This document shows positions 2,137 to 59,689 of a stretch of DNA of 64,000 nt, one piece after another. The DNA is taken from positions 58,801 to 122,800 of the forward strand of contig JBBSAM010000003.1 of NCBI GenBank assembly GCA_038252255.1. The letters are read 5' to 3'. How positions within the stretch are numbered: position 1 is the first letter of the stretch; each line of letters begins with the position of its first letter. The notes beneath the pieces are model-generated. The model made no database searches, had not been told where the DNA came from, and saw only the letters and a program-made list of their open reading frames with translations. The stretch is from Acidimicrobiia bacterium. GTDB taxonomy: Bacteria; Actinomycetota; Acidimicrobiia; IMCC26256; JAENVU01. A program made the translations under genes and the position numbers.

Positions 2137-2205
2137 CGCGCGAAATTGTGAAGAAGCCGCGAGAGGTCCTAGTCGGCAGCAGTCGGTCGTTCTAGGGTCG
2201 AAGTC

Positions 2206-7065: not shown

Positions 7066-7119
7066 CCTGCTGGCGGGCGGGCCGGGATGACTGTCACACC
7101 CTCTCGGTAGCCTCGGGCC

Positions 7120-10614: not shown

Positions 10615-13600
10615 GCGAGCGCACGCGCTTCGAGCTCACGGGCCCGTTGCCGGTCGGTCGCGTCGCGATCGAAGCGAGTGCCGGGACGGGCAAGACCTAC
10701 ACCCTGGCCGGGCTCGCGGTGCGGTACGTGGCCGAGGCCGCGGTGCCCGTGGCCGAGCTCCTGGTGGTCACGTTCACGCGGGCGGCCGCGGCGGAGCTCC
10801 GCGATCGTGTCCGGACGCGGCTCAGCGACGCCGCGCGCGCGTTGCGCAGCAGCTCCGAGTCCTTCGACGATCCCCTGCTCGGGCACCTCGCGTCCACGGA
10901 CCGCGAGATCCGGGCGGAGCGCATCGAGGCCGCGGTCACGGATTTCGACGCCGCGACGATCACCACGATTCACGGCTTCGCCCAGCAGGTGCTCACCACG
11001 CTCGGCTCGACCGCGCCGGGCGACCTCGACGCCACCTTGGTCGACGACGCCCGCGAGCTCGTGACCCAGGTCTGCGCCGACGTGCTGGCCGCGGCCGCGG
11101 TGGCCGAGCCGCCCGTCGCCGAGGACCTGCCCAAGCTCGGTCGGCTGGTGCAGCTGGTGCTCACGGTGCTGGGCAACCCGGGCCTGGCGATCGTCCCGGG
11201 GCCCGACCCCGAAGACTCGTCGGAGCTCAGTGCCCGCTACCGGCGGCTGGTCGATCAGGCGGTCGACGAGGTGCAGCGGCGCCGGCGCGACGCCGGGACG
11301 ATGTCGTTCGACGACGTGCTGACCCAGCTCCGCGACGCGCTCCGCGACAGCCCCGCGGTCGCGGCCTCGCTCCAACGTCGTTACCGGGTGGCGCTCATCG
11401 ACGAGTTCCAGGACACCGACCCGGTGCAGTGGCAGATCTTCTCGACGCTGTTCGGCGGGGGGACGAGCCAGACGTCGCTCGTGCTCGTCGGCGACCCGAA
11501 ACAGGCGATCTACGCGTTCCGCGGCGCGAACGTGCACACCTACCTCGAGGCCGCGTACGAGCCGGGCACCGAGCGCTCGACCCTCGGCATGAACTGGCGC
11601 TCGGACCAGGCGTTGCTCGACGCGTTGGAGCACCTGCTCCACGGGGCGACGTTCGGTGATCCGCGGATCGGCTTCGTGGACGTCGAGACCGCGCCCGCGC
11701 ACGTCGCGCGCCGGCTGCAGACCGCGGCCGGCACCCCCCTCCCCGCGCTGGCCGTGCGCGCCGCGCTGGGCGCCGACCTCGAGCGCAACAAGACCCGCAA
11801 GCCGCCGCCGATCAAGGTGGACGACGCCACTCGCGCGATCGCCCGCGACCTCGCGCGCCAGGTCCAGCTCCTGCTGGAGGAGGCCTACCTCCCCGGCGGG
11901 GAGGGCGGGACGGGAGCGGACGGAGCCAGCGCGACGCAGCGGGTCCGGCCGCACGACATCGCGGTGCTCGTCGGGACCCACGCCGACGCGACCATCATGC
12001 AGTCGGCACTGCTCCGGCAGGGCATCCCCGCCGTCGCGCACCGGGGCGGCAGTGTGTTGGAGTCGCCGGCCGCGATCCAGTGGCGGTGGCTGTTGACCGC
12101 GCTCAGCCGACCCTCCGACGCGTCCCGCGCGCGCACCGCCGCGTTGTCGTGGTTCTTCGGCTGGCCCGCGGATCGCATCGACACCGCGAGCGACGAGGAC
12201 CTCGCGGGCGTGCAGGAGCGGCTCTACCGGTGGGCGGAGATCCTCGAGACGCGCGGCGCGGTGGACTTCTGCGCCCACGTCTGGTCCGAGAGCGACGTCA
12301 CCACCCGGGTGCTCGAGACGCCCGACGGGGACCGCAACCTCACCGACCTCGACCATCTCGCCCAGCTGCTCCAGGCGAGCGCGTCCGGCCACCGGCCGGG
12401 TCCGGTCGCGCTGCTCGCCGCGCTCGCGCTGCTCGAGGAGGCGAACAAGATCGAGCTCGAGAACGACGTCACCGCGCGCCGCATCGAGTCCGAAGCCGAG
12501 GCCGTACAGGTCATGACGGTGTACGCGGCGAAGGGCCTCGAGTTCCCGGTGGTGTACGTCCCGACGCTGTGGAAGAACAACTTCTCGCGCCGCGAGTGCA
12601 TCTACCAGGACCCGGACACCGGTGCCCGGACGCTGGACGTCACCAAGGCGATCACCAGGTCCGGCGTGTGGCCGAGCAAGGCAGGGGCCGAGGCGCGCAA
12701 GGAGCTCGCGGAGCGGGAGGCGGTCGGCGAGAACCTGCGGCTCCTGTACGTCGCGCTCACCCGCGCCCGGCACCAGACGGTCGTGTGGTGGAGCCGGGCC
12801 CAGGACAGCGAGGCGACCGGCCTGGCCCGGGTGCTCTTCGCCCGCGACGAGGGCGGCTCGCTCCGGCCGGACCTGTTCGAGGCGGACACGGTGCCGTTGC
12901 CGGCCGATGCCGACGCGGTGGCGTGGCTCGCACCCGTGTTCGCCCCGGTCGGCGACGCGGTGGCGCTGACCGAGACGGGCCGGGCGGACGGGGCCGTCCC
13001 GCGGTGGATCCCGGCCGACGACGCGACGACCCCCGCACAGCTGGAGCTCGCCGAGCTCGGGCGGATGCTCGAGCGGCCCCACCGGCGCTGGTCGTTCAGC
13101 GCGATCAGCGACCGCGCGCACACACTGGACCTCGACCCGGACGACGACACGCTCGGTGACTCCGGCGCGGCCGACGAACCCGCCGATCCCGAGGCGGGCG
13201 AGGCGATGGCCGGAGCCGGGACCGGGGAAGCCACCGGACCGGTCGCCGAGCTGGTCACCGATCTGCCGCTCGGCGCGGTGCCGGGCGGCACGACCTTCGG
13301 GTCCATGGTCCACGAGCTGCTCGAGCACGTGGACTTCGCCGCCGCCGACCTCGACGCGGAGCTCCAGGCGCGCATCGACGAGCGGCGGCGCTGGAGCCCG
13401 TCACCGGTGCTGGGCGAGGAGCTGCGCGCGGGCCTGCGGGCCGCGATCGAGTCGCCCCTCGGCCCGCTGTTCGACGGGCGCCGGCTCCGGGACCTGACCC
13501 GCGCCGACCGCCTCGACGAGCTGAGCTTCGAGCTGCGCCTCGGCGAGGGCGGGCGCCGGGCGACGGACCGGGACATCGGCGCGCTCATGGCCCACCACCT

Positions 13601-14105
13601 CGCCGGCGACGACCCGCTACGACCGTGGGCCGAGCGCCTCGCCGCCGGTCTCTTCGACGTCGAGCTCGCCGGCCACCTCACCGGTTCGATCGACGCGATC
13701 TTCCGGGTCACCGACACCACCGAGCTCTTCGCCCCACACCGCTTCGTCCTCGTGGACTACAAGACGAACCTGCTCGCCGAACGCGGGCAGCCGCCGCGGT
13801 CGGCCGACTACCACCCGAGCCGGCTGCCGGCCGCGATGGAGGAGCACCACTACCCGCTCCAGGCGCTGCTCTACTCCGTGGTCCTCCACCGCTACCTGCG
13901 CTGGCGCGTAGAGGGCTACGACCCCGCCGTGCACTTCGGCGGCGCCGCCTACCTCTTCCTGCGCGGGATGACTGGGGCCGGTACGCCGGTCGTGGGCGGC
14001 CAACCGCACGGTGTGTTCGGTTGGGCGGTGCCGCCCGCGCTCGTCACCGACCTGAGCGACCTCCTCGACGGCCAGCTCCTCGACGTACTGGCGGCCGGCG
14101 CATGA
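10611..14105 (+). CDS. recB: Exodeoxyribonuclease V beta subunit RecB (UvrD-type helicase plus PD-(D/E)xK nuclease)
   Basis: Walker A motif EASAGTGKTYTLAG, then DEFQDTD, and C-terminal nuclease-type sequence (LVDYKTN). The in-frame extension upstream of 10611 is Arg/Gly-rich and overlaps recC. Confidence 0.92.
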   Translation: MSERTRFELTGPLPVGRVAIEASAGTGKTYTLAGLAVRYVAEAAVPVAELLVVTFTRAAAAELRDRVRTRLSDAARALRSSSESFDDPLLGHLASTDREIRAERIEAAVTDFDAATITTIHGFAQQVLTTLGSTAPGDLDATLVDDARELVTQVCADVLAAAAVAEPPVAEDLPKLGRLVQLVLTVLGNPGLAIVPGPDPEDSSELSARYRRLVDQAVDEVQRRRRDAGTMSFDDVLTQLRDALRDSPAVAASLQRRYRVALIDEFQDTDPVQWQIFSTLFGGGTSQTSLVLVGDPKQAIYAFRGANVHTYLEAAYEPGTERSTLGMNWRSDQALLDALEHLLHGATFGDPRIGFVDVETAPAHVARRLQTAAGTPLPALAVRAALGADLERNKTRKPPPIKVDDATRAIARDLARQVQLLLEEAYLPGGEGGTGADGASATQRVRPHDIAVLVGTHADATIMQSALLRQGIPAVAHRGGSVLESPAAIQWRWLLTALSRPSDASRARTAALSWFFGWPADRIDTASDEDLAGVQERLYRWAEILETRGAVDFCAHVWSESDVTTRVLETPDGDRNLTDLDHLAQLLQASASGHRPGPVALLAALALLEEANKIELENDVTARRIESEAEAVQVMTVYAAKGLEFPVVYVPTLWKNNFSRRECIYQDPDTGARTLDVTKAITRSGVWPSKAGAEARKELAEREAVGENLRLLYVALTRARHQTVVWWSRAQDSEATGLARVLFARDEGGSLRPDLFEADTVPLPADADAVAWLAPVFAPVGDAVALTETGRADGAVPRWIPADDATTPAQLELAELGRMLERPHRRWSFSAISDRAHTLDLDPDDDTLGDSGAADEPADPEAGEAMAGAGTGEATGPVAELVTDLPLGAVPGGTTFGSMVHELLEHVDFAAADLDAELQARIDERRRWSPSPVLGEELRAGLRAAIESPLGPLFDGRRLRDLTRADRLDELSFELRLGEGGRRATDRDIGALMAHHLAGDDPLRPWAERLAAGLFDVELAGHLTGSIDAIFRVTDTTELFAPHRFVLVDYKTNLLAERGQPPRSADYHPSRLPAAMEEHHYPLQALLYSVVLHRYLRWRVEGYDPAVHFGGAAYLFLRGMTGAGTPVVGGQPHGVFGWAVPPALVTDLSDLLDGQLLDVLAAGA

Positions 14106-15985
14106 GCGCCCCTGCGCCCATCCTCGACCGCGACACGCAGGTGCTCGAGCCGTTCGTCGCGGCCGGTGTGCTCGACGCGGCGGCGGTGCACGTCGCCGGG
14201 CGGATCGCCCGCGCCGTCGGCGGCCTCGATCCCGCCGTGCTGCTGGGTGCCGCGCTGGCCACGCGCGCACCGACGTTCGGTCACGTCTGCATCGTTCCCG
14301 CGACCGTGGCCGAGTCCATCGTGCTCGACGACCCCGAACCGGTCGCGCTCGACACCCTTCCGTGGCCCGACCCCGGGGAGTGGGCGACGCGTCTCGCCGC
14401 GAGCGGCGCGGTGCGCGGCCCGGACGATCCGGGCAACGGTGTCTCGCTCCCGCTCGTCTGGGACGGCACCCGCCTCTACCTCGAGCGGTACTGGCGGTTC
14501 GAGCGCCGGGTCGCCGACGATCTGCGGCGCCGCGCCGCGACCGCGGGCGGCATCGCGGGAGCGTCGCCCGAGCTCACCGGGATCCTCGACCGGCTGTTCG
14601 ACGCCGGCGGCGGGAGCGGGCCGGATCTCCAGCGCGACGCGGCGACGATCGCGCTCACTCACCACCTCGCGGTGATCGCGGGGGGTCCCGGCACCGGCAA
14701 GACGCGCACCATCGCCCGGTTGCTCGCCGCCGCGCACCACGTCGCGCTCGCCGAGGGCCGGCCCATCGAGGTGGCGCTGGCCGCGCCGACGGGCAAGGCA
14801 TCGGCGCGCATGACCCAGGCGGTGCACCACGAGGTCGCCGAGGCGGGCGAGACCGGCCCGGTCGCGGACCAGCTGCTCGCGACCGAGGCGTCCACGCTGC
14901 ACCGGTTGTTGGGCGCGACGTCGGGCGTGGAGTTCCGCCACGACGCCGCCAACCCACTCCCCCACGACCTCGTGGTGGTGGACGAGACGTCGATGGTGTC
15001 GCTGCCGCTCATGGCCCGGCTGCTCGCGGCGGTTCGCCGGGACGCGACACTCGTGCTCGTCGGCGACCCGTACCAGCTCGCGAGCGTCGAGGCCGGCGCG
15101 GTGCTCGGCGAGATCGTCGGCCCGACCCCCGGGACGCGCGCGCACGGACCGCTGGCCGAGCGCGTCGTGCTGCTCGAACGGGTGCACCGCTTCGGTGCCG
15201 ACTCGGCGATCGCCGCCCTGGCGGACGCGGTTCGGACCGGCGACGCCGACCGCGCCCTGCGCCTCCTGGCCGGCGACGACACCGGTGATCTCACCTGGGT
15301 CGCCGCGGACGACACCCCCGGAATCGCCGCCGTCCAGCGCGACGCGGCCGCGCACGCGGTCGACGTGATCGCCGCGGCACGCGCCGGCGACGCCGAGGCC
15401 GGGCTCGCCCGCGCGGCGGCGCTGAAGGTCCTGAGCGCGACCCGGCTCGGACCGCTCGGCGCGTACCGGTGGGGGGACCGCATCGAGACGCTCGCCGGCC
15501 GGGCCATGCCGCCGGCCGCGATGCAGGGCCGTTGGTACGTCGGCCGGCCGGTCATCGTGACCCGCAACGACTACCCGAACCGCCTGGTCAACGGCGACGT
15601 CGGGCTCGTGGTCGCCGGAGCCGAACGGCCGGTGGTGGCCTTCGGCGGCGCCGAGGGGATCCGGGAGCTCGCGGTCTCCCAGCTCGACGAGATCGAGACC
15701 TGGTGGGCGATGACCATCCACAAGAGCCAGGGTTCCGAGTTCGGCCGGGTCGTGATCACGCTCCCGCCGGCCCCGTCACCGATCCTCACCCGCGAGCTCC
15801 TCTACACCGCGGTGACCCGGGCGAAGGAGCACGTCACCGTCGTGGCCTCCGAGGCGTCGCTGCGCGCCGCGATCGCCCGCCCGGTGAACCGCGCCTCCGG
15901 CCTGGCAGACCAGCTCGCCCACTCTTCAAGATCGCCGGCGCTTCCGAGATCTCCGGCGGCCGAACGGAAGGACCGCGAGCGGTAG
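14102..15985 (+). CDS. recD: Exodeoxyribonuclease V alpha subunit RecD
   Basis: GGPGTGKT, VVDETSMV, and TIHKSQGSEF...YTAVTRAK are present. There is an ATGA overlap with recB. The last ~19 codons and the TAG stop lie inside the repeat array. Confidence 0.9.
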   Translation: MSAPAPILDRDTQVLEPFVAAGVLDAAAVHVAGRIARAVGGLDPAVLLGAALATRAPTFGHVCIVPATVAESIVLDDPEPVALDTLPWPDPGEWATRLAASGAVRGPDDPGNGVSLPLVWDGTRLYLERYWRFERRVADDLRRRAATAGGIAGASPELTGILDRLFDAGGGSGPDLQRDAATIALTHHLAVIAGGPGTGKTRTIARLLAAAHHVALAEGRPIEVALAAPTGKASARMTQAVHHEVAEAGETGPVADQLLATEASTLHRLLGATSGVEFRHDAANPLPHDLVVVDETSMVSLPLMARLLAAVRRDATLVLVGDPYQLASVEAGAVLGEIVGPTPGTRAHGPLAERVVLLERVHRFGADSAIAALADAVRTGDADRALRLLAGDDTGDLTWVAADDTPGIAAVQRDAAAHAVDVIAAARAGDAEAGLARAAALKVLSATRLGPLGAYRWGDRIETLAGRAMPPAAMQGRWYVGRPVIVTRNDYPNRLVNGDVGLVVAGAERPVVAFGGAEGIRELAVSQLDEIETWWAMTIHKSQGSEFGRVVITLPPAPSPILTRELLYTAVTRAKEHVTVVASEASLRAAIARPVNRASGLADQLAHSSRSPALPRSPAAERKDRER

Positions 15986-16140
15986 ACGGCCGCCGGCGGC
16001 TCTCCAAGATCTCCGGCGGCCGAACGGAAGGACCGCGAGCGGTAGACGGCCGCCGGCGGCTCTCCAAGATCTCCGGCGGCCGAACGGAAGGACCGCGAGC
16101 GGTAGACGGCCGCCGGCGGCTCTCCAAGATCTCCGGCGGC
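15929..16140 (+). repeat. Tandem array of a 60-bp hairpin repeat (3 perfect units plus partial flanks)
   Basis: The unit is AGATCT-CCGGCGGCCG-(24 nt, core GACCGCG)-CGGCCGCCGG-CGGCTCTCCA. Units start at 15947, 16007, 16067 and 16127. Confidence 0.95.
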
Positions 16141-23223: not shown

Positions 23224-23834
23224 TCCCGAGGGGGATCCTGAACGGTGCCGCCCTGAACGGTGCCGCCCTCGGCCGCCGGACCAGCAGCGATCCGACCGTT
23301 CGGCCGAGGGAGACCCTGAACGGTGCCGCCCTCGGCCGCCGGACCAGCAGCGATCCGACCGTTCGGCCGAGGGGGATCCTGAACGAGCAGGTGCCGGAAG
23401 CGCGAGACGGTGTGCTCGACGACGCGGTCGTGCGCGAAGCGGATGACCGGGGACCCGACGCGGGCGGCGAGGCGCATCGGCCGTTGCATCATCTCCACGC
23501 TCCAGCTCACCGTGGCCCGGGTGCCGTCCCGTTCCGGATCGAAGCGGATGCCGGCCCGGCCGACGAGGTCACCCGAGACGGCGGCTTCGATCAGGCTGGG
23601 GCGTACGCAGCGCACCAGCGCGATGTGCAGGTGCATCCGGTAGGGCACGGGCGGTGCGACCAGCCCGTGCAGCACGCAGCCGGATTCGAGCGGCGTGCCG
23701 TCCACCCTCAGCTCACGCAACCAGCTCCACCAGGACTCGAACTCCTCGGTCCGGGCGACTGTGGACCAGACGGCGTCCGGCGTCGCGGGCAGGCTGAAGC
23801 GTTCGGCGTACTCGAAGATGGGGGCACGCACCAT
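23178..23834 (-). CDS. SRPBCC (START/polyketide cyclase-like) family protein with a repeat-encoded C-terminal tail
   Basis: GGGAG RBS is present. The protein starts MVRAPIFEYAERFSLPATPDAVW... The last ~70 codons read through the 63-bp array (PRPNGRIAAGPAAEGGTVQG twice). The ORF ends 46 bp inside the convergent gene. Confidence 0.65.
   Translation of the reverse strand: MVRAPIFEYAERFSLPATPDAVWSTVARTEEFESWWSWLRELRVDGTPLESGCVLHGLVAPPVPYRMHLHIALVRCVRPSLIEAAVSGDLVGRAGIRFDPERDGTRATVSWSVEMMQRPMRLAARVGSPVIRFAHDRVVEHTVSRFRHLLVQDPPRPNGRIAAGPAAEGGTVQGLPRPNGRIAAGPAAEGGTVQGGTVQDPPRDQVTLTRLRVVNEQR
23225..23385 (-). repeat. Tandem array (about 2.6 units) of a 63-bp variant of the hairpin repeat family
   Basis: Arms CCCTCGGCCG / CGGCCGAGGG lie at 23266-23275/23301-23310 and at 23329-23338/23364-23373. 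Loops are 25 nt and the flank is GGATCCT/AGACCCT. Confidence 0.9.
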
Positions 23835-23850
23835 GTCGCGGCTCCCAACG

Positions 23851-24060
23851 TCAGGCGAGTCGGATGTCGTCGCTGGTGAACGCGCGCGGCAAGACCGCGC
23901 CGTCGGAGCACCGGCGCACTTCGTAGGCACCGTCGCGCCAGCCACTCACTTGAAAGCCGGGCGACCAGAGATTGAGCGAGTTGCGGACCAGCACGCCGGT
24001 GCCCACGTCCAATTGCGGGCGCGGCCTGGAGATCTCGTTGCGCATGGAGGCGGCTTCCAT
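23851..24060 (-). CDS. Small hypothetical protein (69 aa)
   Basis: GAGGAGGA RBS upstream of the ATG at 24060. No recognisable domain. Confidence 0.4.
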   Translation of the reverse strand: MEAASMRNEISRPRPQLDVGTGVLVRNSLNLWSPGFQVSGWRDGAYEVRRCSDGAVLPRAFTSDDIRLA

Positions 24061-39749: not shown

Positions 39750-39784
39750 GACCCCTTCGCGGACTCGAGCCGGCGGACTCGAGA

Positions 39785-39836
39785 CCGCCGCCGGCCGCCC
39801 CGCGATCGCGGTCGAGCGATCGGCCGGCGGAGATCT
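39785..39836 (-). repeat. Single copy of the hairpin repeat family
   Basis: The plus strand reads CCG-CCGCCGGCCG(39788-39797)-23 nt (CGCGGTC core)-CGGCCGGCGG(39821-39830)-AGATCT(39831-39836). It is wedged between the convergent lhgO and ldh stops. Confidence 0.85.
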
Positions 39837-39838
39837 TG

Positions 39839-40765
39839 TTAAATCGGCAGGTTCTCGTTCGCCTGGCGCAGCACCGCGAGGGTGTGGTCCCAGGCTTCGC
39901 GCTCGCGGGTGGTCATCAACGGCTGGAGCGGCGCGCTCGGGCCGTCGGGGCCGAGCACGCAGGGGAGGCTGGCGCACACGTCGTCGCCGACCCGCACCGA
40001 CACCGGGATGATCGCACCCGCTTCGTGAGAGATCGCGTGGACCAGCCCGCTGACCGTCAGCCCGATGCCGTGCACCGCCGAGCCCTTCAGGTCGCGCACG
40101 TGGTACGCCGCGCGGCGGACGTCGTGCTCGATCGAGTCGAGGCGTTCGGGTGTCAGCTCCACCCCGCGCTGCGCGGCGAACTCCACCAGCGGCAACGTGC
40201 CCACGGTCGCGCTGCCGAGCAGGAAGACCGAGGAGTCCCCGTGCTCCCCCACCACCCAGGAATGCACGCTGCGCGGGTGCACCGCGCACTCTTGCGCGAT
40301 CCGCTGGGTGAGCCGCAGCGTGTCGAGCGACGTGCCGGAGCCCATGATCGACACCGGCTGACCGGCCCAGCGGCGGGCCAGGTACTCCGTCATCACGTCC
40401 AGCGGGTTGGTGACGACGAGCGCGATGTGCGGCAGCGTGCCCGCCTCCACCGCGCTCGCCATGTCGTCCATCACCGCGAGGTTCTGGTGCAGCGTGTCGA
40501 GGCGGGTGCCACCGGTGACGGTGTGAGCGCCGGCCGCGAACACGAGGATGTCCTCGTACTGGATGTCGTCGAGGCCGCGACCCTGGATCTCGATGCTCGG
40601 GAGCAGCGGGCGGGCGTGGAGGAAGTCCATCGCGACACCTTGCGCGGCCTCGGGCTTGCGGCTGTAGATCGTGACCCGGTTGGCGAGGCCCCGGTGGATG
40701 AGCGCGGACGCGGTGGCCACGCCGACTCCCCCGGCTCCGATGACACCGACTCGAGCTCCCGCCAT
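39839..40765 (-). CDS. ldh: L-lactate dehydrogenase family protein
   Basis: VGVIGAGGVG, VVTNPLDVMT and GEHGDS are present. The upstream in-frame extension is not protein-like. Confidence 0.8.
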   Translation of the reverse strand: MAGARVGVIGAGGVGVATASALIHRGLANRVTIYSRKPEAAQGVAMDFLHARPLLPSIEIQGRGLDDIQYEDILVFAAGAHTVTGGTRLDTLHQNLAVMDDMASAVEAGTLPHIALVVTNPLDVMTEYLARRWAGQPVSIMGSGTSLDTLRLTQRIAQECAVHPRSVHSWVVGEHGDSSVFLLGSATVGTLPLVEFAAQRGVELTPERLDSIEHDVRRAAYHVRDLKGSAVHGIGLTVSGLVHAISHEAGAIIPVSVRVGDDVCASLPCVLGPDGPSAPLQPLMTTREREAWDHTLAVLRQANENLPI

Positions 40766-41020: not shown

Positions 41021-41644
41021 GTGAGCCCCAGCCAGAAGCAGAAGCAGAGTCAGAGGCGCAAGTCGTCGACCCCGCCCCCGCAGAGCAAGGCGTGGGTCCG
41101 GATCGCGATCTTCGCGCTGGCCATCGTGTTTGCGTTCGGTTCCGTCATCGCCATCGCCATCGGCAGCAGCGGCAACTCCGGGAACGACACCGCGAGCACG
41201 ACGGCCCCGTCGACCGCTGCCACTCCGGCCGCGGCTTCGGTCGCAGGCAAGCCGTGCGTGGCCGAGACCGGCACGCCGCCGGCGGGTGCACCCGTCGTGC
41301 CGGTGGAGGTCGGCCCGCCGCCGACCACGCTCGTCTCGAAGGACCTCGAAGTCGGAACCGGCCCGACGGTCGCGCCGGGCGCGACCGTCACCGTCGACTA
41401 CATCGGCGTCTCGTGCTCGACCGGCGTGATCTTCGACTCGTCGTACAAGGGCGGCCAGCCGGTGACGCTCCCGCTCGCCAACATGATCCCGGGTTGGACC
41501 AACGGCATCCCCGGCATGAAGGTCGGCGGCACCCGGCTGCTCGGCATCCCACCGGACCAGGCGTACGGGGACAACGGTCAGGGCCCCGACATCGCGCCCG
41601 GCGAGACCCTCTGGTTCGTGGTGAAGGTCGAGAGCACGCAGTAG
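41021..41644 (+). CDS. Membrane-anchored FKBP-type peptidyl-prolyl cis-trans isomerase
   Basis: GTG start. A basic N-terminus and one TM helix precede VTVDYIGV...GVIFDSSY...IPGWTNGIPGMKVGGTRLLGIPPDQAYG. Confidence 0.8.
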   Translation: MSPSQKQKQSQRRKSSTPPPQSKAWVRIAIFALAIVFAFGSVIAIAIGSSGNSGNDTASTTAPSTAATPAAASVAGKPCVAETGTPPAGAPVVPVEVGPPPTTLVSKDLEVGTGPTVAPGATVTVDYIGVSCSTGVIFDSSYKGGQPVTLPLANMIPGWTNGIPGMKVGGTRLLGIPPDQAYGDNGQGPDIAPGETLWFVVKVESTQ

Positions 41645-41650
41645 CCCTGA

Positions 41651-41703
41651 AGATCTCCGGAGGGCGGACGCTCGACCGCGGCTGAGCCGGCGCCCTCCGG
41701 CGG
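41651..41703 (+). repeat. Single copy of the hairpin repeat family
   Basis: AGATCT(41651-41656)-CCGGAGGGCG-24 nt (GACCGCG core)-CGCCCTCCGG(41691-41700)-CGG. It lies between the convergent FKBP and whiB stops. Confidence 0.9.
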
Positions 41704-41721
41704 TCTCCTCCGGCAGCTCGT

Positions 41722-42845: not shown

Positions 42846-43943
42846 TCAACGAGGTGAGAAGCCGGCGCGATCGGCATCCAGCGCCGCGACGCGGCCGGAC
42901 GGCGCGATCCCGTCACCGCGGAGCCGGGCCGGGAGACGCGCCACCAGCCCCGCCTCCGTCTCGAGGTGGAACCCGCGGCCGCGGAGCTGCGGATGCTCGG
43001 TCGCGCCTTCGGGAGACAGCACCGGTGTGACGGGCGCGCCGAACGATTCGAGTCGCGCGAGCGCGACCTCCGAGCCGAGCCCGGCGATCCGCTCGGCGAT
43101 CATCGCGTTGATCTCGTCCGTGCGCGCGAGTCGCGCCGCGAACGTGAGCGGAGCGAGCTCCTCGAGCCCCAGGGCGCGGCAGATGGCGTCCCAGAGTCTC
43201 TGCTCCGCGAGCACGCCGAGCGCGATCCACGCACCATCCGCGGCGCGGAACACGCCGTAACCGGGTGACCCCACGGTTCGGCTACCGGCCTCCGCGTTCG
43301 CGGTCCCGCTGCGCGTCCCCACCCACCACGCGACGACGTCGGCCATCGCGACGTCGATCCGCTCGCCCTCGCCGGTCGCGATCCGGTGCGCCCACGCCGC
43401 GCAGATCAACATCGCGCACACCGTCCCACCTTCGAGGTCGGCGACCGGGAGCCGCGACACCTCGGGAGCAAGCTCGGGGCGGCGCGGCGCGAGCGCACCC
43501 GCGATCGCCTGGAAGTTCACGTCGTGGCCGGGCACATCGCGAAGCGGCCCGTCCTGGCCGAAGCCGGTCAGCGAGCAGTAGATGACCGTCGGGTTCGCTT
43601 CCACGACCGTCTCGTAGCCGAGCCCGAGCCGGTCCGCGACACCCGGCCGCCAGCTCTCGCACACCACGTCGGCCGCCGCCGCCAGCTCGAGCGCCCGCGC
43701 GCTCCCGGCCTCGGTGCGGAGGTCCAGCACGATGCTGCGCTTCCCGCGGGCGACCGAGGCGAAGATCTCCGGATAGCCGCGCATCGGGTCGCCACCCGGC
43801 GGCTCGACCTTGAGCACCTCGGCGCCGAGGTCGGCGAGGATCTGGGTCGCGTGCGGCATCGGCCGCCACGCCGACAGATCCAACACCCGCATCCCCGCCA
43901 GAAGCCCAGACACAACCGCTTCTTTACTAGGTACCGCCACCAT
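42846..43943 (-). CDS. CoA transferase (family III, CaiB/BaiF-like)
   Basis: LAGMRVLDLS...ILADLGAEVLKVEPPGGDP. Start choices are ATG 43943 (inside the repeat edge), GTG 43913 or ATG 43892. Confidence 0.85.
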   Translation of the reverse strand: MVAVPSKEAVVSGLLAGMRVLDLSAWRPMPHATQILADLGAEVLKVEPPGGDPMRGYPEIFASVARGKRSIVLDLRTEAGSARALELAAAADVVCESWRPGVADRLGLGYETVVEANPTVIYCSLTGFGQDGPLRDVPGHDVNFQAIAGALAPRRPELAPEVSRLPVADLEGGTVCAMLICAAWAHRIATGEGERIDVAMADVVAWWVGTRSGTANAEAGSRTVGSPGYGVFRAADGAWIALGVLAEQRLWDAICRALGLEELAPLTFAARLARTDEINAMIAERIAGLGSEVALARLESFGAPVTPVLSPEGATEHPQLRGRGFHLETEAGLVARLPARLRGDGIAPSGRVAALDADRAGFSPR

Positions 43944-44087
43944 TCGCCCTCCGGAGATCTTCGGAATGCCGCCGGAGGGCGCCGGGCAACCGCGGTCCAC
44001 CATTCGCCCTCCGGAGATCTTCGGAATGCCGCCGGAGGGCGCCGGGCAACCGCGCTCCACCATTCGCCCTCCGGAGATCTCCGAATT
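43937..44087 (-). repeat. Tandem array (about 2.5 units, 60-bp period) of the hairpin repeat family in a divergent promoter region
   Basis: Complete hairpins lie at 43972-44014 and 44032-44074 (CCGGAGGGCG / CGCCCTCCGG). AGATCT occurs at 43955, 44015 and 44075. Confidence 0.95.
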
Positions 44088-44154
44088 GAAGGATGGCGGG
44101 AAAGGTGGGTTCGCCGTCCTTGTGGTCGCGGGGAGGTGGCCGCACGATGGGGTC

Positions 44155-44793
44155 ATGCAGATTGCCTTCGTGCTCTACGACCAGTTCACGGCGCTCGACA
44201 TCGTCGGGCCGTTCCAGACGCTCGCGGACCTTCCCGGTGTGGAGGCCGTGTTCGTCGCGCCGAAGCGAGGCCCGGTGCCGGACCACACCGGCCGGCTGTC
44301 ACTGACCGCGACCGCGGCACTCGACGAGGTCACCGAGCCGGAGGTCATCGTGGTTCCGGGCGGGTTCGCCGACCGGCACGCCGGCCCGGACGACCCGGTC
44401 GTCCAGTGGATCCGCGCGGTGCACCCGACCACGACGTGGACCACGAGCGTCTGCACCGGCTCGATCTTCCTGGGGCTGGCCGGGGTGCTCGACGGTCTCG
44501 ATGCGACCACGCACTGGACGGCCTACGAGCGTCTCGCCGCGCTGGGGGCTCGTCCCACCGAGCAGCGGGTCGTCGAGCGCGGCAAGGTGATCACCGCCGC
44601 CGGCGTGTCGGCGGGCATCGACATGGGTCTCACCCTCGCGTCGCGCCTGTTCGGAGATGACGTCGCGTGCGCGGTGCAGCTCGCCATCGAGTACGACCCG
44701 CAACCGCCGTTCGATTCGGGCGCGCCGAGCAAGGCATCACCGGAGCTGCTCGCGTTCGTCAGCGAGCTGATGGGCGCCACGGCTCCCGCCTAG
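44155..44793 (+). CDS. DJ-1/PfpI family protein
   Basis: VVPGG...SVCTGSIFLGLAGVLDG...THW...ITAAGVSAGIDM. Confidence 0.85.
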   Translation: MQIAFVLYDQFTALDIVGPFQTLADLPGVEAVFVAPKRGPVPDHTGRLSLTATAALDEVTEPEVIVVPGGFADRHAGPDDPVVQWIRAVHPTTTWTTSVCTGSIFLGLAGVLDGLDATTHWTAYERLAALGARPTEQRVVERGKVITAAGVSAGIDMGLTLASRLFGDDVACAVQLAIEYDPQPPFDSGAPSKASPELLAFVSELMGATAPA

Positions 44794-44807: not shown

Positions 44808-47800
44808 TCAGGTCGCGTCGAGCTCCGTGAGAAGCCGTTCGTACCCGTTCGCCTCTGCCACCCGCGCCACGACGGTGGCCAGCGTCTCGGACGCGTCGTC
44901 TGCCTGATCCGACTGCCGGAGCACCTGCACCGTCCCGGCCTGAGCCTGCGCCACCCAGTACGGCGCCCGCATCGCCTCGGACATCGCGGCCGCGGCCTCG
45001 AAGTGCGCCAGCGCGAGTGACGTGTCGTGCCGGACGGCGGAGAGCGCTCCGAGCCAGTGGTGAACGCATCCCAACACCGCGCCGCCGGCACCGAACACCA
45101 CGACGTGGTCGGCGAACGGCTCGAGCATCTCGATCAGGAGGTCGGCCAGGTCGAGATCCCCGGTCCGGGCCGCCGCACCGGCGAAGAGGGAGATCGCGGC
45201 GAGCCAGAAGCCGTCGCGCTGCAACCGGTGCCCGTCCGGGCCGAGCGCCTGGCGCACGATAGGCACGACGTCACCGGTCCGGCCGGTCTCTGCGCACGCG
45301 ACCGCGGCGAGCGCCAAGCCGGCCCAGTACCCGTGCTGGTGCTCCGGCGCGTTGCTCAGGCCGGTGACGAGCTCGGCGAGCCGGCCCTGCTGGTAGCGGA
45401 TGACGAAGAGGTGGAGCACATGGGCACCGACGACGTCGGTCTGCCCGAGCTCGCGACCACGCGTGAGCGCACCACGAGCCCGCTGCTCCGCCGCGCTCAG
45501 GTCACCGTGCAGCGTCGCCTGCGTCGCCCTCAGCGCCATCGACCAGTAGATGTCCGGTGGGCTCCGCAACGTCGAGGCCTGGCGCTCGTACTCTTCGAGC
45601 CGGTCGTCGAACTCGTCCACCCGACCGTTCTGCAGCAGATCGGAGAGGTGCAGCCGCTCGGCCCGGAGGTGGAGGTGCCGGCAGTCGTCGGCGCGGGTCA
45701 GCTCCACCGTGCGAGCCGAGAGCTCGAGCCGTTCGCATCGCGCCCCGGGCTCGTGGGTCAACCACCGGTGGTACGCCAGGTTCCCGGCCGCCCGGGCCGC
45801 GGTGTCGCCCAGCTCCTCGCCGAGGGCGAGCGCGGCGCGCGCGGCCTCACCCTCACGATCGGGATCGGTGTAGTAGAGCGTCGCCGCCAGGCTGTTGAGC
45901 ACCTGCACCCGGCGCAGCCGATCGGACTCGCCGAGCTGCTCCAACGCATCGTCGAGCAGCGCGAGCACGTCCGACTGCAGGTGGAGTGCCACGCTCCACG
46001 GACCGGTCGCGGCCACACCGATGTCGGCGAGCAGCTCCGGGTCCCCGGCGGTGCGCGCGAAGTCCGCCGCCACCATGTAGGCATCCCGGGCCCGTTCGAG
46101 CTGGCCGCCGTTGTCCAGCGCACGCGCGAGCCCGAACTGGATCTGGCCCAGCTCCCGCGCGCTCCAGCGAGCGGCGCGGCCCAGCTCCAGCGCCTGCTCG
46201 AACCAGGGCGCGGCCTCGGAGAACGCGAACCGGTCCACCGCGTCCTCCGCGGCGCACCGGGCGTAGCGCGCGGCCTTCTCCGGATCGCCGAGCGGGAGGG
46301 CGGCGACGAAGTGCCGGGCCATCTCGGCCGCGCTCGGCGCCGCGCCCGTCGGGTCGGTCGCTTCGAGCGCGATGCCAACCTGCCGATGCAGCTGCCTCCT
46401 GCAGTCCTCCGGGATCTCGAGGTAGACCGCGTTGCGAACGAGCGCGTGGGAGAACTCGAACATGTCGCGGTCGCCGGGGTACTCCGCGAGCAACCTCGAT
46501 GCGAGGCTCTCCTCGACCGCGTCGAGGGTCTCGTCGGCCGTCAGGCCGCAGGCCGCGGCCAGCAGGTCGGCCGAGAAGAGCCGGCCGACGACGGTCGCCA
46601 TGTGCAGCACGTCGCGGCCGCGATCGGAGAGCCGCTCGACCCGCCGGCTCACGAGCGCCCGCACCCCGGCCGGCGCCATCGTGCGCAACATCTCCTCGAG
46701 CACCGCCGCGTCGGAGGTCTCGATGCGGTGCTCGTCGAGCTCACGGAGCAGCTCGCGGATGAACAGTGGGTTGCCGCGCGTCACCGACGCGATGGTCGGA
46801 ACGAGACCGACGAGCGTCTGCACCGCGTCGGGTGGTGCGGTGGCGCGCAGCATCGCCCGCACCTCGGTGTGATCGAAGCCCTCGAGCCGGACGTGCACGC
46901 GCCGGGTCCGCGGCGCGAGCCGATCGATCAGCTCGCGCCGGCTCGAGCTCAGCTCGTCGTCCCGGTAGGTCGCGAGGACGAGGAGCCCTTCGAGCTCGGG
47001 GTCGCGCAGCAGGTGCCGCAGCACCAGCAGCGTCGGCTCGTCGGCCCAGTGGAGGTCCTCGACCGAGAGCACCACGGGCCGCCCCGGGGCGCGCGCGATG
47101 GTGGCGGCGATCGCGGCGAAGAGCTGGTACCGCTGCACGGTCGCGGTGGCATCGGCACTCGCGTGGGCCCCGGTCATCGTCCCCGTCAGACCGAGCACCG
47201 AGAGCTCACCGGGCAGCTCGCCACCCGTGGCATCGAGGCGCGGCACGAGCGCGCGGAGGATCTCCACCCACGGTTGGTACTCACCGGGCGGATCCGGGTC
47301 GCAGCGACCGGTGAGAACGATCGCACCCGCGGCGGTCGCCCGCCGGATCGTCTCGCCGAGCAACGTGCTCTTCCCGACCCCGGCATTGCCGGTGATGAGC
47401 ATGAGCCGTCGCTCGTCCGCCACGGCGGCTCCGTACACGCCGCGAAAGTCCTCGAGCTCCTGGCGCCGACCGATGAACCGCCCGGGGGGCTCCGGCCGCT
47501 CGGGCACCGCGACCGACGACCGGCTCTCCGGCGCCCAATCGAGGCCGGGCCGCTGCAGCAGCACGTCTTCCTCGAGCTTGCGCAAAGCGAGCGACGGACC
47601 GATGCCGAGCTGCTCGTCCAGCCGGCGGGTGAGGTCGGAGCACGCCCGAAGCGCTTCCGCCTGCCGGCCACTCCGGTAGAGCGCGAGCACGAGCTCCTCC
47701 GTGAGCCGCTCGCGCAGCGGAAACGCCTCGATCGCCGTAGTCAGGAGCTCGATGACGACGGCATGGTCGCCGAGCGTCATGCGGGCCTCGGCCAGCTCCT

Positions 47801-48299
47801 CGAATGCGGCGGCGCGCAGGTCCTCCAAGCGGGCGAGGTCTCCTCGCACCGCCCGCAGGTCACGGGCGTCGGCCAGCGGCGGCCCACGCCAGAGCGTGAA
47901 GGCACGTGAGAGATGGCGGACCGCCGCGTCCGGATCACCTTCGGCGTTCGCATCGCGACCGAGCACGAGCAGGCGCTCGAACCGCTCCGCGTCCAGCTCG
48001 TCCGGCTCCACCCGCAGGAGGTAGCCGTGCGGGCTCGCGGGGAGCCGGATGCTCGGCGCGTTCGTGGCCCGCTCGGGCTCCAGGATCTGGCGCAACCGCC
48101 TGATGTGGACCCGGAGCGCCGTTGCCGCGCTGGGCGGCTGATCCTCTTCCCAGAGCTCCTCGATCAGCTGCTCGGCCGGCACCGGCCGGTTGGCGCGCAG
48201 GGTCAGCAGGGTCAGCACGGCTCGGGGCTTGGCCCCTCGCAGCGAGGTCGGCCCGTTACCGTGATCGACCTCGAGCGGGCCCAACACCCGAATCTCCAC
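44808..48299 (-). CDS. AfsR/SARP family transcriptional regulator (OmpR-type wHTH + BTAD + NB-ARC/AAA ATPase + TPR-like C-terminus)
   Basis: GTG start with an AGGAGG RBS. The protein begins VEIRVLGPLEV. ALRVHIRRLRQIL, Walker A GNAGVGKSTLL and a long helical repeat tail follow. Confidence 0.9.
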   Translation of the reverse strand: MEIRVLGPLEVDHGNGPTSLRGAKPRAVLTLLTLRANRPVPAEQLIEELWEEDQPPSAATALRVHIRRLRQILEPERATNAPSIRLPASPHGYLLRVEPDELDAERFERLLVLGRDANAEGDPDAAVRHLSRAFTLWRGPPLADARDLRAVRGDLARLEDLRAAAFEELAEARMTLGDHAVVIELLTTAIEAFPLRERLTEELVLALYRSGRQAEALRACSDLTRRLDEQLGIGPSLALRKLEEDVLLQRPGLDWAPESRSSVAVPERPEPPGRFIGRRQELEDFRGVYGAAVADERRLMLITGNAGVGKSTLLGETIRRATAAGAIVLTGRCDPDPPGEYQPWVEILRALVPRLDATGGELPGELSVLGLTGTMTGAHASADATATVQRYQLFAAIAATIARAPGRPVVLSVEDLHWADEPTLLVLRHLLRDPELEGLLVLATYRDDELSSSRRELIDRLAPRTRRVHVRLEGFDHTEVRAMLRATAPPDAVQTLVGLVPTIASVTRGNPLFIRELLRELDEHRIETSDAAVLEEMLRTMAPAGVRALVSRRVERLSDRGRDVLHMATVVGRLFSADLLAAACGLTADETLDAVEESLASRLLAEYPGDRDMFEFSHALVRNAVYLEIPEDCRRQLHRQVGIALEATDPTGAAPSAAEMARHFVAALPLGDPEKAARYARCAAEDAVDRFAFSEAAPWFEQALELGRAARWSARELGQIQFGLARALDNGGQLERARDAYMVAADFARTAGDPELLADIGVAATGPWSVALHLQSDVLALLDDALEQLGESDRLRRVQVLNSLAATLYYTDPDREGEAARAALALGEELGDTAARAAGNLAYHRWLTHEPGARCERLELSARTVELTRADDCRHLHLRAERLHLSDLLQNGRVDEFDDRLEEYERQASTLRSPPDIYWSMALRATQATLHGDLSAAEQRARGALTRGRELGQTDVVGAHVLHLFVIRYQQGRLAELVTGLSNAPEHQHGYWAGLALAAVACAETGRTGDVVPIVRQALGPDGHRLQRDGFWLAAISLFAGAAARTGDLDLADLLIEMLEPFADHVVVFGAGGAVLGCVHHWLGALSAVRHDTSLALAHFEAAAAMSEAMRAPYWVAQAQAGTVQVLRQSDQADDASETLATVVARVAEANGYERLLTELDAT

Positions 48300-48365
48300 C
48301 CGCACCTCCTGCCGGAAACGGTGGGGCGCGAAGGCTACAACCGGGGGGCATCCGAGCGCCGCGAC

Positions 48366-48387
48366 GCGCTTTACGCGCGCTTTACGC
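48366..48387 (+). promoter_or_regulatory. Perfect 11-bp tandem direct repeat (GCGCTTTACGC x2), candidate SARP operator
   Basis: It lies in the divergent region between the SARP gene and the 48454 gene. A TACAAC -10-like hexamer sits 8 nt downstream (48396-48401). Confidence 0.45.
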
Positions 48388-48453
48388 CCACCGCGTACAA
48401 CGACGACCACGAGGAACCCGTCGCCTCACCACCCCGACCCGAAGGAACTCCCT

Positions 48454-54240: not shown

Positions 54241-54252
54241 CTGCCTGAGAGA

Positions 54253-54313
54253 CCGCCCGAGGGCGCCTGAGCGATCGCGCTCGGGCCATTCGCCTCCGGA
54301 GACCTCCGGAATC
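54253..54313 (-). repeat. Degenerate single copy of the hairpin repeat family
   Basis: CCG-CCCGAGGGCG-25 nt-CGCCTCCGG-AGACCT-ccggaatc. The arms are no longer perfectly complementary and AGATCT is mutated. It lies between convergent stops. Confidence 0.6.
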
Positions 54314-58711: not shown

Positions 58712-59689
58712 CTACTGCGTCACCCCCGAGGGGGCGCCGTCGCCGCCGGCGCCGGGCGGGGGCCCGCCGAAGCCGACGAGCGCGCCTTCGCGGATGGAGG
58801 TGGCGGTGATGGTGCCGTTGGAGTCCTGGCCGCGCACCATGATCGTGTCCCCGACCTTGAGGTCGGAGAGCGATCCGGGCTTGGAGACGGTCACCTCGGT
58901 CGACGACGTCGTGGTGACGGTCACCGCGTTGCCGTCGAGCCCGGTGACCGTGAACGTTCCGTCACCCGCGGACTGCACGACCCCACGGGTGAACGTCGTG
59001 CCACTCGCGCCGCCCGGGGCCTGGCCACCGGCGCCGGGACCGCCGAACCGCCGGCCGCCGTAGCCCTGGCCGCTGCCGCCGCCCGGGGGCCCGCCGTTGC
59101 CGCCCGGTCCGGCGAATCCGCCCGGACCGTTCGCGTCGCTCGACACCACACCGTCATCGGTGACCCGCGTCGCCGCGATGTTGGGAGACGATCCCGTGCC
59201 GACGACCGTCACGGTGTCGCCGACCTTGATGTCGCCGGTCGTCCCGCTGGCGGACGTGGTCACCGCCGTCGCGGACGTGGTGACCACCTTGGTGGTCGCT
59301 CCGCTCCGGTCCTTGATGGTCAGCTTGGAACCCTCGATGCTCGCAATCGTGCCGAAGCCGCCGGGTCCGCGCCGGAAGCCGGGTTGGCCACCCTGCGCCT
59401 GTGACTGGCCCGCACCACCCGGCTGGTTCGCGGCCGGCGCCTGGCTCGAGACCGCGGCGTTCGAGGAGTCCGACGAGGTTGCGGCACTGATTCCGAACAC
59501 CGCGGCCGCACCGACCACCGCGGCACCCGCGCCGACGGCGACCCACGTCCGCCACGAGGGTTTCCACGGCTCCTTCTCCGTCGCCCGGGTCACGGGCAGC
59601 CCGGTCTCGGGCAGCCCGGTCTCGGGCAGCCCGAACGTGGGGGTCTCGGGCTCGGGTGGCGAGCTCGGTGTGGTCGTGTCGTCATCCAT
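58712..59689 (-). CDS. Membrane-anchored Gly-rich protein with two DUF5666-like beta domains
   Basis: An N-terminal TM helix is followed by two repeats of the pattern G(T/S)...V(T/K)...T...IKVGDTV/LKVGDTI, separated by GGPGG-rich linkers. Confidence 0.65.
   Translation of the reverse strand: MDDDTTTPSSPPEPETPTFGLPETGLPETGLPVTRATEKEPWKPSWRTWVAVGAGAAVVGAAAVFGISAATSSDSSNAAVSSQAPAANQPGGAGQSQAQGGQPGFRRGPGGFGTIASIEGSKLTIKDRSGATTKVVTTSATAVTTSASGTTGDIKVGDTVTVVGTGSSPNIAATRVTDDGVVSSDANGPGGFAGPGGNGGPPGGGSGQGYGGRRFGGPGAGGQAPGGASGTTFTRGVVQSAGDGTFTVTGLDGNAVTVTTTSSTEVTVSKPGSLSDLKVGDTIMVRGQDSNGTITATSIREGALVGFGGPPPGAGGDGAPSGVTQ

Follow-up and report, generated by a model that had tools for sequence, protein, structure and literature searches.

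The window analysed here, a stretch of 64,000 nucleotides (64 kb) from an Acidimicrobiia bacterium with a G+C content of 71.6%, contains a tandem array of hairpin-forming repeats between two divergently transcribed genes, which encode a family III CoA-transferase and a DJ-1/PfpI protein. Tandem Repeats Finder reported the array at 43937–44080 with a period of 60, 2.4 copies, 98% matches and a score of 281, and an ungapped repeat finder followed the third, partial copy to 44088. A 37-nt hairpin core, CGCCCTCCGG-AGATCTTCGGAATGCCG-CCGGAGGGCG, occurs exactly twice (43945–43981 and 44005–44041), which was matched in 0 of 100 shuffles of the window. Both repeat programs, the shuffles and the Pfam assignments of the two genes agree with the 60-bp-period hairpin array that the original prediction had placed in this divergent spacer. 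It had also claimed that the array takes up most of the spacer, and this is what was found: the array (43937–44088) lies in a gap of 211 bp when measured from ATG 43943, or of 241 bp from the orthologue-consistent GTG 43913. The features of the locus are listed below.

42846–43913 (from GTG) or 42846–43943 (from the annotated ATG), minus strand: CoA-transferase family III gene (Pfam CoA_transf_3, E = 1e-85).
43914–43936, minus strand: A+T-rich tail CGGTACCTAGTAAAGAAGCGGTT between the array and GTG 43913, containing a weak purine-rich ribosome-binding region.
43937–44088, minus strand: repeat array, with the canonical order AGATCT-CCGG-arm1-linker-arm2-CCGG-CGG... on the CoA-transferase sense strand and covariance hits of 88.7 and 61.5 bits.
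43937–43960, minus strand: truncated unit 3, AGATCT CCGGAGGGCG AATGGTGG, second arm missing.
43961–44020, minus strand: full unit 2, one linker base off unit 1 (GACCGCGG versus GAGCGCGG).
44021–44080, minus strand: full unit 1, AGATCT CCGGAGGGCG AATGGTGGAGCGCGGTTGCCCGG CGCCCTCCGG CGGCATTCCGA, by unit extraction from the sequence.
44081–44093, minus strand: 13-nt stretch (plus strand CCGAATTGAAGGA) upstream of the first AGATCT, in the position of the 8-nt YTTCCGA-like leader of other copies in the alignments.
44094–44124, no strand assigned: conserved block TGGC(A/G)GGAA...GGG...GTCCTTG(C/T)G, an imperfect dyad in the alignment, present in all orthologous spacers.
44120–44148, plus strand: candidate DJ-1 core promoter, with TTGTGG at 44120–44125, 17 nt, CACGAT at 44143–44148, 6 nt and ATG 44155.
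44155–44793, plus strand: DJ-1/PfpI gene, 212 aa (Pfam DJ-1_PfpI, E = 6e-24), of equal length in relatives (gene calls of L122, L129 and L137).

On the minus strand, the unit of the array consists of AGATCT, the arm CCGGAGGGCG, a 23-nt linker AATGGTGGA(C/G)CGCGGTTGCCCGG, the arm CGCCCTCCGG and the junction CGGCATTCCGA. The two full units differ in a single base (G at 43994, C at 44054). As RNA, one array unit (unit 2) folds at −32.6 kcal/mol with a 10-bp GC-rich stem. Truncated unit 3 carries GGAGGG and ATG 43943, the CoA-transferase start chosen by gene callers. Unlike in the window, the last unit is complete in the orthologous arrays of L136 and L123.

The array is one member of a dispersed family. 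The family unit is about 60 nt long and is composed of AGATCT-CCGG, a 10-bp arm, a 23–25-nt linker with a central GACCGCGG, the complementary arm and CGG. A covariance model built from 15 units found six family loci in the window (A, B, D, S, C, which is the studied array, and E), and more copies in other genomes. Arm sequences differ between the window loci while the architecture is constant. An alignment of 18 distinct units from 12 sources, in which the conserved head reads AGATCTCCGG, shows little or no variation in AGATCTCC plus the G after it and in part of the linker. The family stems covary, with compensatory changes: over the 18 units the 10-bp stem is paired in 93% of the cells, and 17 cells in four pairs are changed on both sides. 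The covariation score was reached by 0 of 500 shuffles, and pairing fell to 39–68% when the partner columns were slid. The folding energies of single units range from −29 to −38 kcal/mol, and in copies S and D the stem is extended by pairing of the flanking AGAUC with a 3' GGUCU. No U-tract follows the hairpin, and for this reason a consensus terminator scan of 43700–44400 found no terminator.

The five further copies in the window are as follows.

15939–16140, plus strand: copy A, 3.5 units with arms CCGGCGGCCG / CGGCCGCCGG, at the end of the recC-recB-recD genes.
23251–23387, minus strand: array B, two 63-bp units of a diverged subfamily (36 and 28 bits).
39773–39844, minus strand: copy D, a single unit in the 89-bp convergent gap between a DAO oxidoreductase gene (plus) and a malate/lactate dehydrogenase gene (minus).
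41643–41715, plus strand: copy S, a single unit in the 77-bp convergent gap between an FKBP gene (plus) and a WhiB-like gene (minus).
54241–54313, minus strand: copy E, a single, more diverged unit (AGGTCT) in the 71-bp convergent gap between an ABC-3 permease gene (plus) and a Fur-family gene (minus).

Three of these five loci (D, S and E) lie between convergent genes and fill the entire 71–89-bp gap, so the array is indeed unlike the other copies in its setting, as had been noted earlier. Every family copy is located outside coding regions or at their very end. AGATCT follows the same-strand stop codon at a distance of 0 nt in L107, 2 nt in D, 4 nt in L127, 6 nt in S and E, 8 nt in L093 and L122x, and probably 8 nt in L050. 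Stop-codon proximity (0–8 nt) was thus observed at eight loci, and copy A is a ninth with the stop codon inside the unit, although the sample is small. The open reading frame (ORF) of RecD in the recC-recB-recD region (7111–15985) ends at TAG 15983–15985 within unit 1 of copy A, and the last 15–18 residues of RecD are therefore encoded by the repeat. All four copies between co-directional genes are oriented as those genes. The exceptions, in which the element lies upstream of a gene start, are the studied locus with its orthologues, L125 and L123b (the context of L128 being left out of this count). Arrays of 1.3–3.5 units occur at other loci.

Some further details of individual copies were observed. 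In array B, AGGATC/AGGGTCT replaces AGATCT, the arms are CCCTCGGCCG / CGGCCGAGGG, and the upstream SRPBCC/Polyketide_cyc2 ORF (23388–23945, minus strand), which lacks a stop codon ahead of the array, continues through it to 23178. L122 has a non-orthologous family copy at 925–1005, 8 nt past a methyltransferase stop codon, and L123 has one at 2765–2831, about 115 nt upstream of a gene start. In the coding sequence of the CoA-transferase itself, 43759–43772 reads CCGGAGATCTTCGC (YPEIFA, conserved in orthologues) and matches the repeat core at 13 of 14 positions with 23 bits; this likeness was judged to be due to chance.

Genome collections were scanned with the pattern CCGGAGATCTTN{6,7}CCGCCGG, and among the matches listed, 3 of 120 loci are true family members, the others being mostly an unrelated coding motif in Oscillospiraceae and Streptomyces genes. 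A metagenome scan with a two-unit pattern returned four contigs, one of which (L126) is an unrelated coding repeat. Among the matches listed, the true ones beyond the window are from metagenome-assembled genomes (MAGs) of Acidimicrobiia (L050, L093 and L107) and from soil-type metagenome contigs (L125, L127 and L128). The nearest named homologues of the CoA-transferase are likewise from Acidimicrobiia. No Rfam family reached the gathering threshold in the window; chance-level matches appeared at E up to 10, and none of them is relevant in 43850–44200. A description of the family was found neither in Rfam nor in the searchable literature. A CRISPR array was ruled out because there are no unique spacers, and a riboswitch or known leader because Rfam gave no match. 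The family is an undescribed repeat family of Acidimicrobiia that resembles the repetitive extragenic palindromic (REP) and Tuberculosis Rho-independent terminator (TRIT) elements, and as such is a known kind of element.

TRIT of Mycobacterium is a conserved hairpin motif present in many copies within a narrow range at stop codons (Gardner et al. 2011, PMC3152330). It is largely palindromic or bidirectional and belongs to a high-G+C actinobacterial lineage poor in canonical terminators, and a recognising factor was suggested by its authors (PMC3152330). The Acidimicrobiia family is similar in being a dispersed multi-copy motif with conserved sequence and structure (six loci in 64 kb) and a narrow placement at stop codons. 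In contrast, the centre of TRIT is about 8 nt within the coding sequence, and the present family begins 0–8 nt after the stop codon. The families also differ in the host class and in the 10-bp stem around a 23–25-nt linker, the 60-bp tandem arrays and the additional occurrence in 5' regions. This comparison is with the description of TRIT, not with its sequence.

REP sequences and bacterial interspersed mosaic elements (BIMEs) are transcribed with their flanking genes and have roles in mRNA 3'-end protection and protein binding (for background, see PMC2817692 and PMC12306157). The REP/BIME-2 elements of Enterobacteria and Pseudomonas, including the REPINs mobilised by REP-associated tyrosine transposases (RAYTs), share with the family the extragenic location, the many copies and the imperfect palindromes. 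As in BIME-2, the arrays have a variable number of units, with the two inverted arms separated in turn by two different linkers. Unlike REP, however, the family has no GTAG or CGTC head motif, its invariant motif being AGATCTCCGG, and its arms are 10-nt half-sites instead of self-palindromic units of 20–40 nt. Neither a RAYT nor any other transposase was found among the approximately 45 ORFs of the window scanned against Pfam.

Two other kinds of repeat are partly similar. Mycobacterial interspersed repetitive units of the variable-number tandem repeat type (MIRU-VNTR) are intergenic tandem repeats of 40–100 bp whose length is a multiple of 3 and whose copy number varies between close relatives. 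The family resembles them in its intergenic tandem units, in a unit length that is a multiple of 3, and in having 0, 1, 2 and 2.5 units at the orthologous site. In contrast, MIRUs lie in operons, where their small ORFs overlap neighbouring stop and start codons, whereas the reading frames through the family differ between orthologues; MIRUs are also not defined by a covarying hairpin, and the Acidimicrobiia family is mostly single-copy and located between convergent genes. Miniature inverted-repeat transposable elements (MITEs), for example the Correia elements of Neisseria, have similar terminal inverted arms, presence/absence polymorphism and either orientation at one site, and such an element could add hairpins or promoter-like sequence to the 5' region of a gene. 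The family differs from them by its unit of only about 60 nt, its tandem amplification, no known partner transposase and no convincing target-site duplication. A consistent target-site duplication was not found at S, D or E, and at the studied site TTCCTGCCAA versus TTCCTAGTAA is ambiguous.

Orthologous loci were retrieved through the CoA-transferase protein. Relatives with as little as about 74% protein identity still have the divergent DJ-1/CoA-transferase pair, and the number of repeat units in the spacer differs among them as follows.

L122 and L129–L135: 0 units, 75-bp spacer, in several samples.
L124: 1 unit, degenerate.
L123: at least 1 unit, the contig ending in the repeat.
L136: 2.0 units.
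Window: 2.5 units.
L137: 1 inverted unit, 10 nt away from the CoA-transferase ATG.
L138 (74% identity): 0 units, with DJ-1 adjacent and an unrelated 190-bp filler spacer.

For P0033 and P0043 (70–71% identity), DJ-1 is no longer the neighbour, and the 21-kb locus L139 around P0043 contained no family copy. The inter-unit junction of L136, CGTCCTGCCA, copies the local flank TCCTGCCA and not the usual family junction, indicating that the L136 array grew by duplication in place. By nucleotide identity of the CoA-transferase gene, the window and L124 (about 82% to all others) fall outside a clade of L122/L129, L136 and L123 (L137 being left out). This pattern suggests that the repeat was probably present in the common ancestor of these lineages and that the zero-unit site, which may be secondary, probably reflects a single loss. 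A tail core T(T/A)CCTAGTA(A/G)AGA is common to all four lineages with the repeat in the orientation of the window. The Logan short-read contig L121, which is identical to the window, ends in the array at its positions 1–40, and L123 does so at 1–10. Because L121 ends inside the array, the exact copy number depends on the assembly; arrays of the family break short-read assemblies, so that unit counts in MAGs may be underestimated.

For DJ-1, the footprint TTG(C/T)GG-N17-CACGAT-N6-ATG was aligned from seven lineages (window, L122, L129, L124, L136, L137 and L138). Both hexamers and both spacings are invariant and the spacer sequence is variable, which suggests that the footprint is the core promoter of a leaderless DJ-1 mRNA. 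Leaderless mRNAs are common in Actinobacteria. A promoter scan of 43700–44400 found none; the consensus used is that of E. coli, to which the DJ-1 footprint is too weak a match, so the promoter assignment is based on the conservation. The original prediction that both promoters and 5' untranslated regions (UTRs) lie in or next to the repeats is half right. The footprint begins 32 bp past the end of the array and is wholly outside it, and with a leaderless mRNA no DJ-1 5' UTR would be located in the repeats. Most likely, DJ-1 is transcribed from a leaderless promoter of its own that lies outside the array, and it is probably unaffected by the array.

The conserved block (44094–44124) overlaps the DJ-1 −35 hexamer and reaches the repeat insertion point, and the repeat abuts its left edge in every lineage. 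It may be an operator shared by the two genes, the region of the ancestral promoter of the CoA-transferase, or both. The spacing in TGGCAGG-N-TTGG is wrong for a sigma-54 promoter, which was therefore rejected.

The start of the CoA-transferase has to be considered together with the array. Nearly all orthologues have 353–358 aa and begin M-x-G-L-L-x-G-M-R-V-L-D-L-S, which corresponds to GTG 43913 in the window (VSGLLAGMRVLDLS...). Counted in the ATG-43943 form, the Pfam domain starts with residue 15, just after GTG 43913. The gene most likely starts at this GTG, outside the array. The public annotation (P0001) uses ATG 43943; this start, with GGAGGG in front of it and 10 more residues in the protein, is possible. 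It had been pointed out earlier that a candidate ATG lies at the array edge and that the longest CoA-transferase ORF runs through the whole array. Both descriptions are accurate: ATG 43943 is inside truncated unit 3, and the minus-strand ORF is open over 42846–44156 and reads the repeats as ...ISGGRMVERGCPAPSGGIPKISGGRMVDRGCPAPSGGIPK....

The suggestion that the array is a source of N-terminal extension did not survive comparison with the orthologues. Besides the orthologue N-termini, the sequence upstream of the start differs between lineages, with a stop codon 4 codons before the start in L123, another frame in L136 (QDLRRANGRPRLLRRPPASC) and yet another in L124. The G+C contents at the three codon positions are 0.66/0.78/0.64 in the array versus 0.76/0.55/0.90 in the gene body, a non-coding pattern. 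On these results a repetitive N-terminal extension was rejected, and no coding extension is conserved. The over-long gene call beginning 'MTPSCGH...' is the antisense of the DJ-1 start and is also made in a repeat-free relative (P0124).

Where the spacer has no repeat, the insertion point and the CoA-transferase start are only about 13–20 nt apart, with a GGGGAG ribosome-binding site between them, so that any ancestral CoA-transferase promoter would have to be on the DJ-1 side. The insertion separates the conserved block from the ribosome-binding region of the CoA-transferase, so that the 5' leader of this gene probably includes the array and its hairpins. A role of the array as a structured 5' UTR of this gene is plausible by its position. 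Two minus-strand −10/−35 candidates, TGCCAA(A/C)CT by the insertion point and TA(A/G)AGA at 7 nt before the start, were unconvincing, and the first is degenerate in the window. Either the array would be transcribed in the CoA-transferase leader, or the conserved A+T-rich tail may have taken over as promoter; we infer from the alignments that one of these two arrangements holds, and both fit. As for the proposal of a copy-number-dependent spacer between the promoters, the variation in copy number is real (0, 1, 1 inverted, 2 and 2.5 units), and an effect of it on expression is purely hypothetical.

Taken together, we consider it rather probable that the array represents local amplification of a copy from a dispersed REP/TRIT-like Acidimicrobiia repeat, and is a tolerated insertion of variable copy number that at most modulates expression, not a purpose-built regulator. 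At the usual 3' sites, the transcript would gain from each unit a stable GC-rich hairpin (−29 to −38 kcal/mol) that lacks a U-tract, and by analogy with REP and TRIT elements the family may define or protect mRNA 3' ends, while the repeat DNA would spread and expand as a selfish element. At the studied locus, the element would have landed in an atypical 5' place, between the conserved regulatory block by the DJ-1 promoter and the CoA-transferase ribosome-binding region. It appears to be old at this site and would later have expanded in place to 2.5 units. Any effect would most likely be on the CoA-transferase only, through two or three leader hairpins and about 150 bp of added distance from the shared block.

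Several points weigh against this interpretation. The hairpins have no U-tract and the terminator scan is empty, so a terminator role is putative. The folding energies of the canonical and the reverse-complement strand differ by 1–3 kcal/mol in both directions with no consistent asymmetry, and DNA-level and RNA-level roles are therefore not separable by folding. The position statistics come from about 13 independent loci, and the argument from orientation is weak in convergent gaps. The promoter positions, the inclusion of the array in the 5' UTR and the RNA-level role are inferred from sequence. Four lineages, with nucleotide identities as low as about 82%, have retained the element in one orientation, and this retention could reflect function rather than tolerance. 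The A+T-rich tail by the start codon is more conserved than a neutral spacer would be; it could be a promoter carried by the element, in which case the array would be untranscribed. The copy number is from a metagenome-type assembly, and two independent contigs (L121 and L123) break in the array.

The long retention in one orientation, together with the conserved tail, is also the main argument for a different explanation, in which the CoA-transferase has in the array a structured 5' leader under selection, an attenuator or stabiliser tuned by the number of hairpins as a VNTR-type expression dial. The positional logic puts the insertion between the ancestral promoter, on the DJ-1 side, and the gene, the repeat is sense-oriented in four lineages and apparently retained since their common ancestor, and the copy number differs between close relatives. 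Moreover, each unit has an in-frame GGAGGG-N4-ATG within a 10-bp stem able to mask it. However, lineages with 0 units or with an inverted unit evidently manage, which is the main argument against a selected role, and the junctions show independent, apparently haphazard duplications. Most family members are at 3' ends, indicating that the sequence was not shaped for a CoA-transferase leader. We regard a tuned leader as unlikely, though more probable than the other alternatives.

A bolder version extends to the whole family and is distinctly doubtful. The family could be the Acidimicrobiia counterpart of TRIT, a sequence-specific 3'-end signal dependent on a protein factor, with the invariant AGAUCUCCGG at the base of the covarying stem and GACCGCGG at its apex, which would replace U-tract terminators in these high-G+C genomes; the leader array would then set expression by graded attenuation. 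If this were true, the unit number would be a heritable VNTR dial on the CoA-transferase.

It is slightly less likely still, and quite improbable, that the array acts at the DNA level, either as sites for a dimeric or nucleoid protein (the near-palindromes CCGAAGATCTCCGG and ACCGCGGT) or as a spacer that uncouples the back-to-back promoters, as BIMEs bind IHF or gyrase. Every unit repeats the 8-bp palindrome ACCGCGGT and a 14-bp near-palindrome around AGATCT, the stems vary across genomes but AGATCTCC with the next G and parts of the linker do not, and the insertion of about 150 bp triples the 75-bp spacer of the ancestral type. On the other hand, in single copies the 14-bp palindrome lacks conservation in its left half, and the insertion does not separate the DJ-1 core promoter from the conserved block, which are contiguous on one side of it. 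A covarying stem with conserved flanks is equally expected of a target of a transposase or an RNA-binding protein, and no candidate binding protein was identified.

The remaining two alternatives are very improbable. Repeats that encode an N-terminal extension of the CoA-transferase, or supply in-frame starts at ATG 43943, 44003 and 44063, would agree with a period that is a multiple of 3, a frame open from 44156, a strong Shine-Dalgarno-like GGAGGG 4 nt before an in-frame ATG in each unit and the start used by the public annotation, but the orthologue starts, the stop codon and other frames upstream, the codon-position pattern, the place of the Pfam domain and the same over-long call in P0124 all speak against them. 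An assembly artefact in the array or its copy number might be suspected from the short-read contigs L121 and L123, whose ends inside the array show that assembly is difficult here, but same-family arrays were assembled independently in several projects, at the same site in L136 with unique flanks on both sides, and the truncated third unit joins unique sequence cleanly, so the existence of the array is secure and only the exact unit number is uncertain.

The results are not very surprising for a bacterial intergenic repeat, and their use lies in a corrected gene start, a covariance model of an undescribed family and a natural copy-number series. For annotation, the public CoA-transferase model starts inside a repeat unit and longer ORF calls cross the array, whereas the orthologues favour GTG 43913. 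The tight placement after stop codons could help to define gene ends and 3'-end formation in genomes without canonical terminators. The family adds to the description of Acidimicrobiia, a class known almost entirely from metagenomes, and the copy-number variation between close relatives could make the arrays usable as strain markers. The series of 0, 1, 1 inverted, 2 and 2.5 units at one locus bears on the effects of leader hairpins on expression.

Downstream of DJ-1, its stop codon (44793) and that of a BTAD/AAA_16 regulator gene (1200 aa, 44808–48410, minus strand) converge on a gap of 14 bp that contains neither repeat nor hairpin, and the two transcripts probably overlap. Two other tandem repeats were observed in the window. 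A 15-bp repeat, GCCCGGTCTCGGGCA, is present at 59583–59633 in 3.3 copies with 94% matches. An imperfect repeat of 18/36 bp, CAGCTCGTCCACCACCTC-like, is located at 2792–2930, where it is overlapped by a plus-strand CBM96/metallophosphatase ORF (2173–3765) and by a minus-strand ORF (2739–3149).

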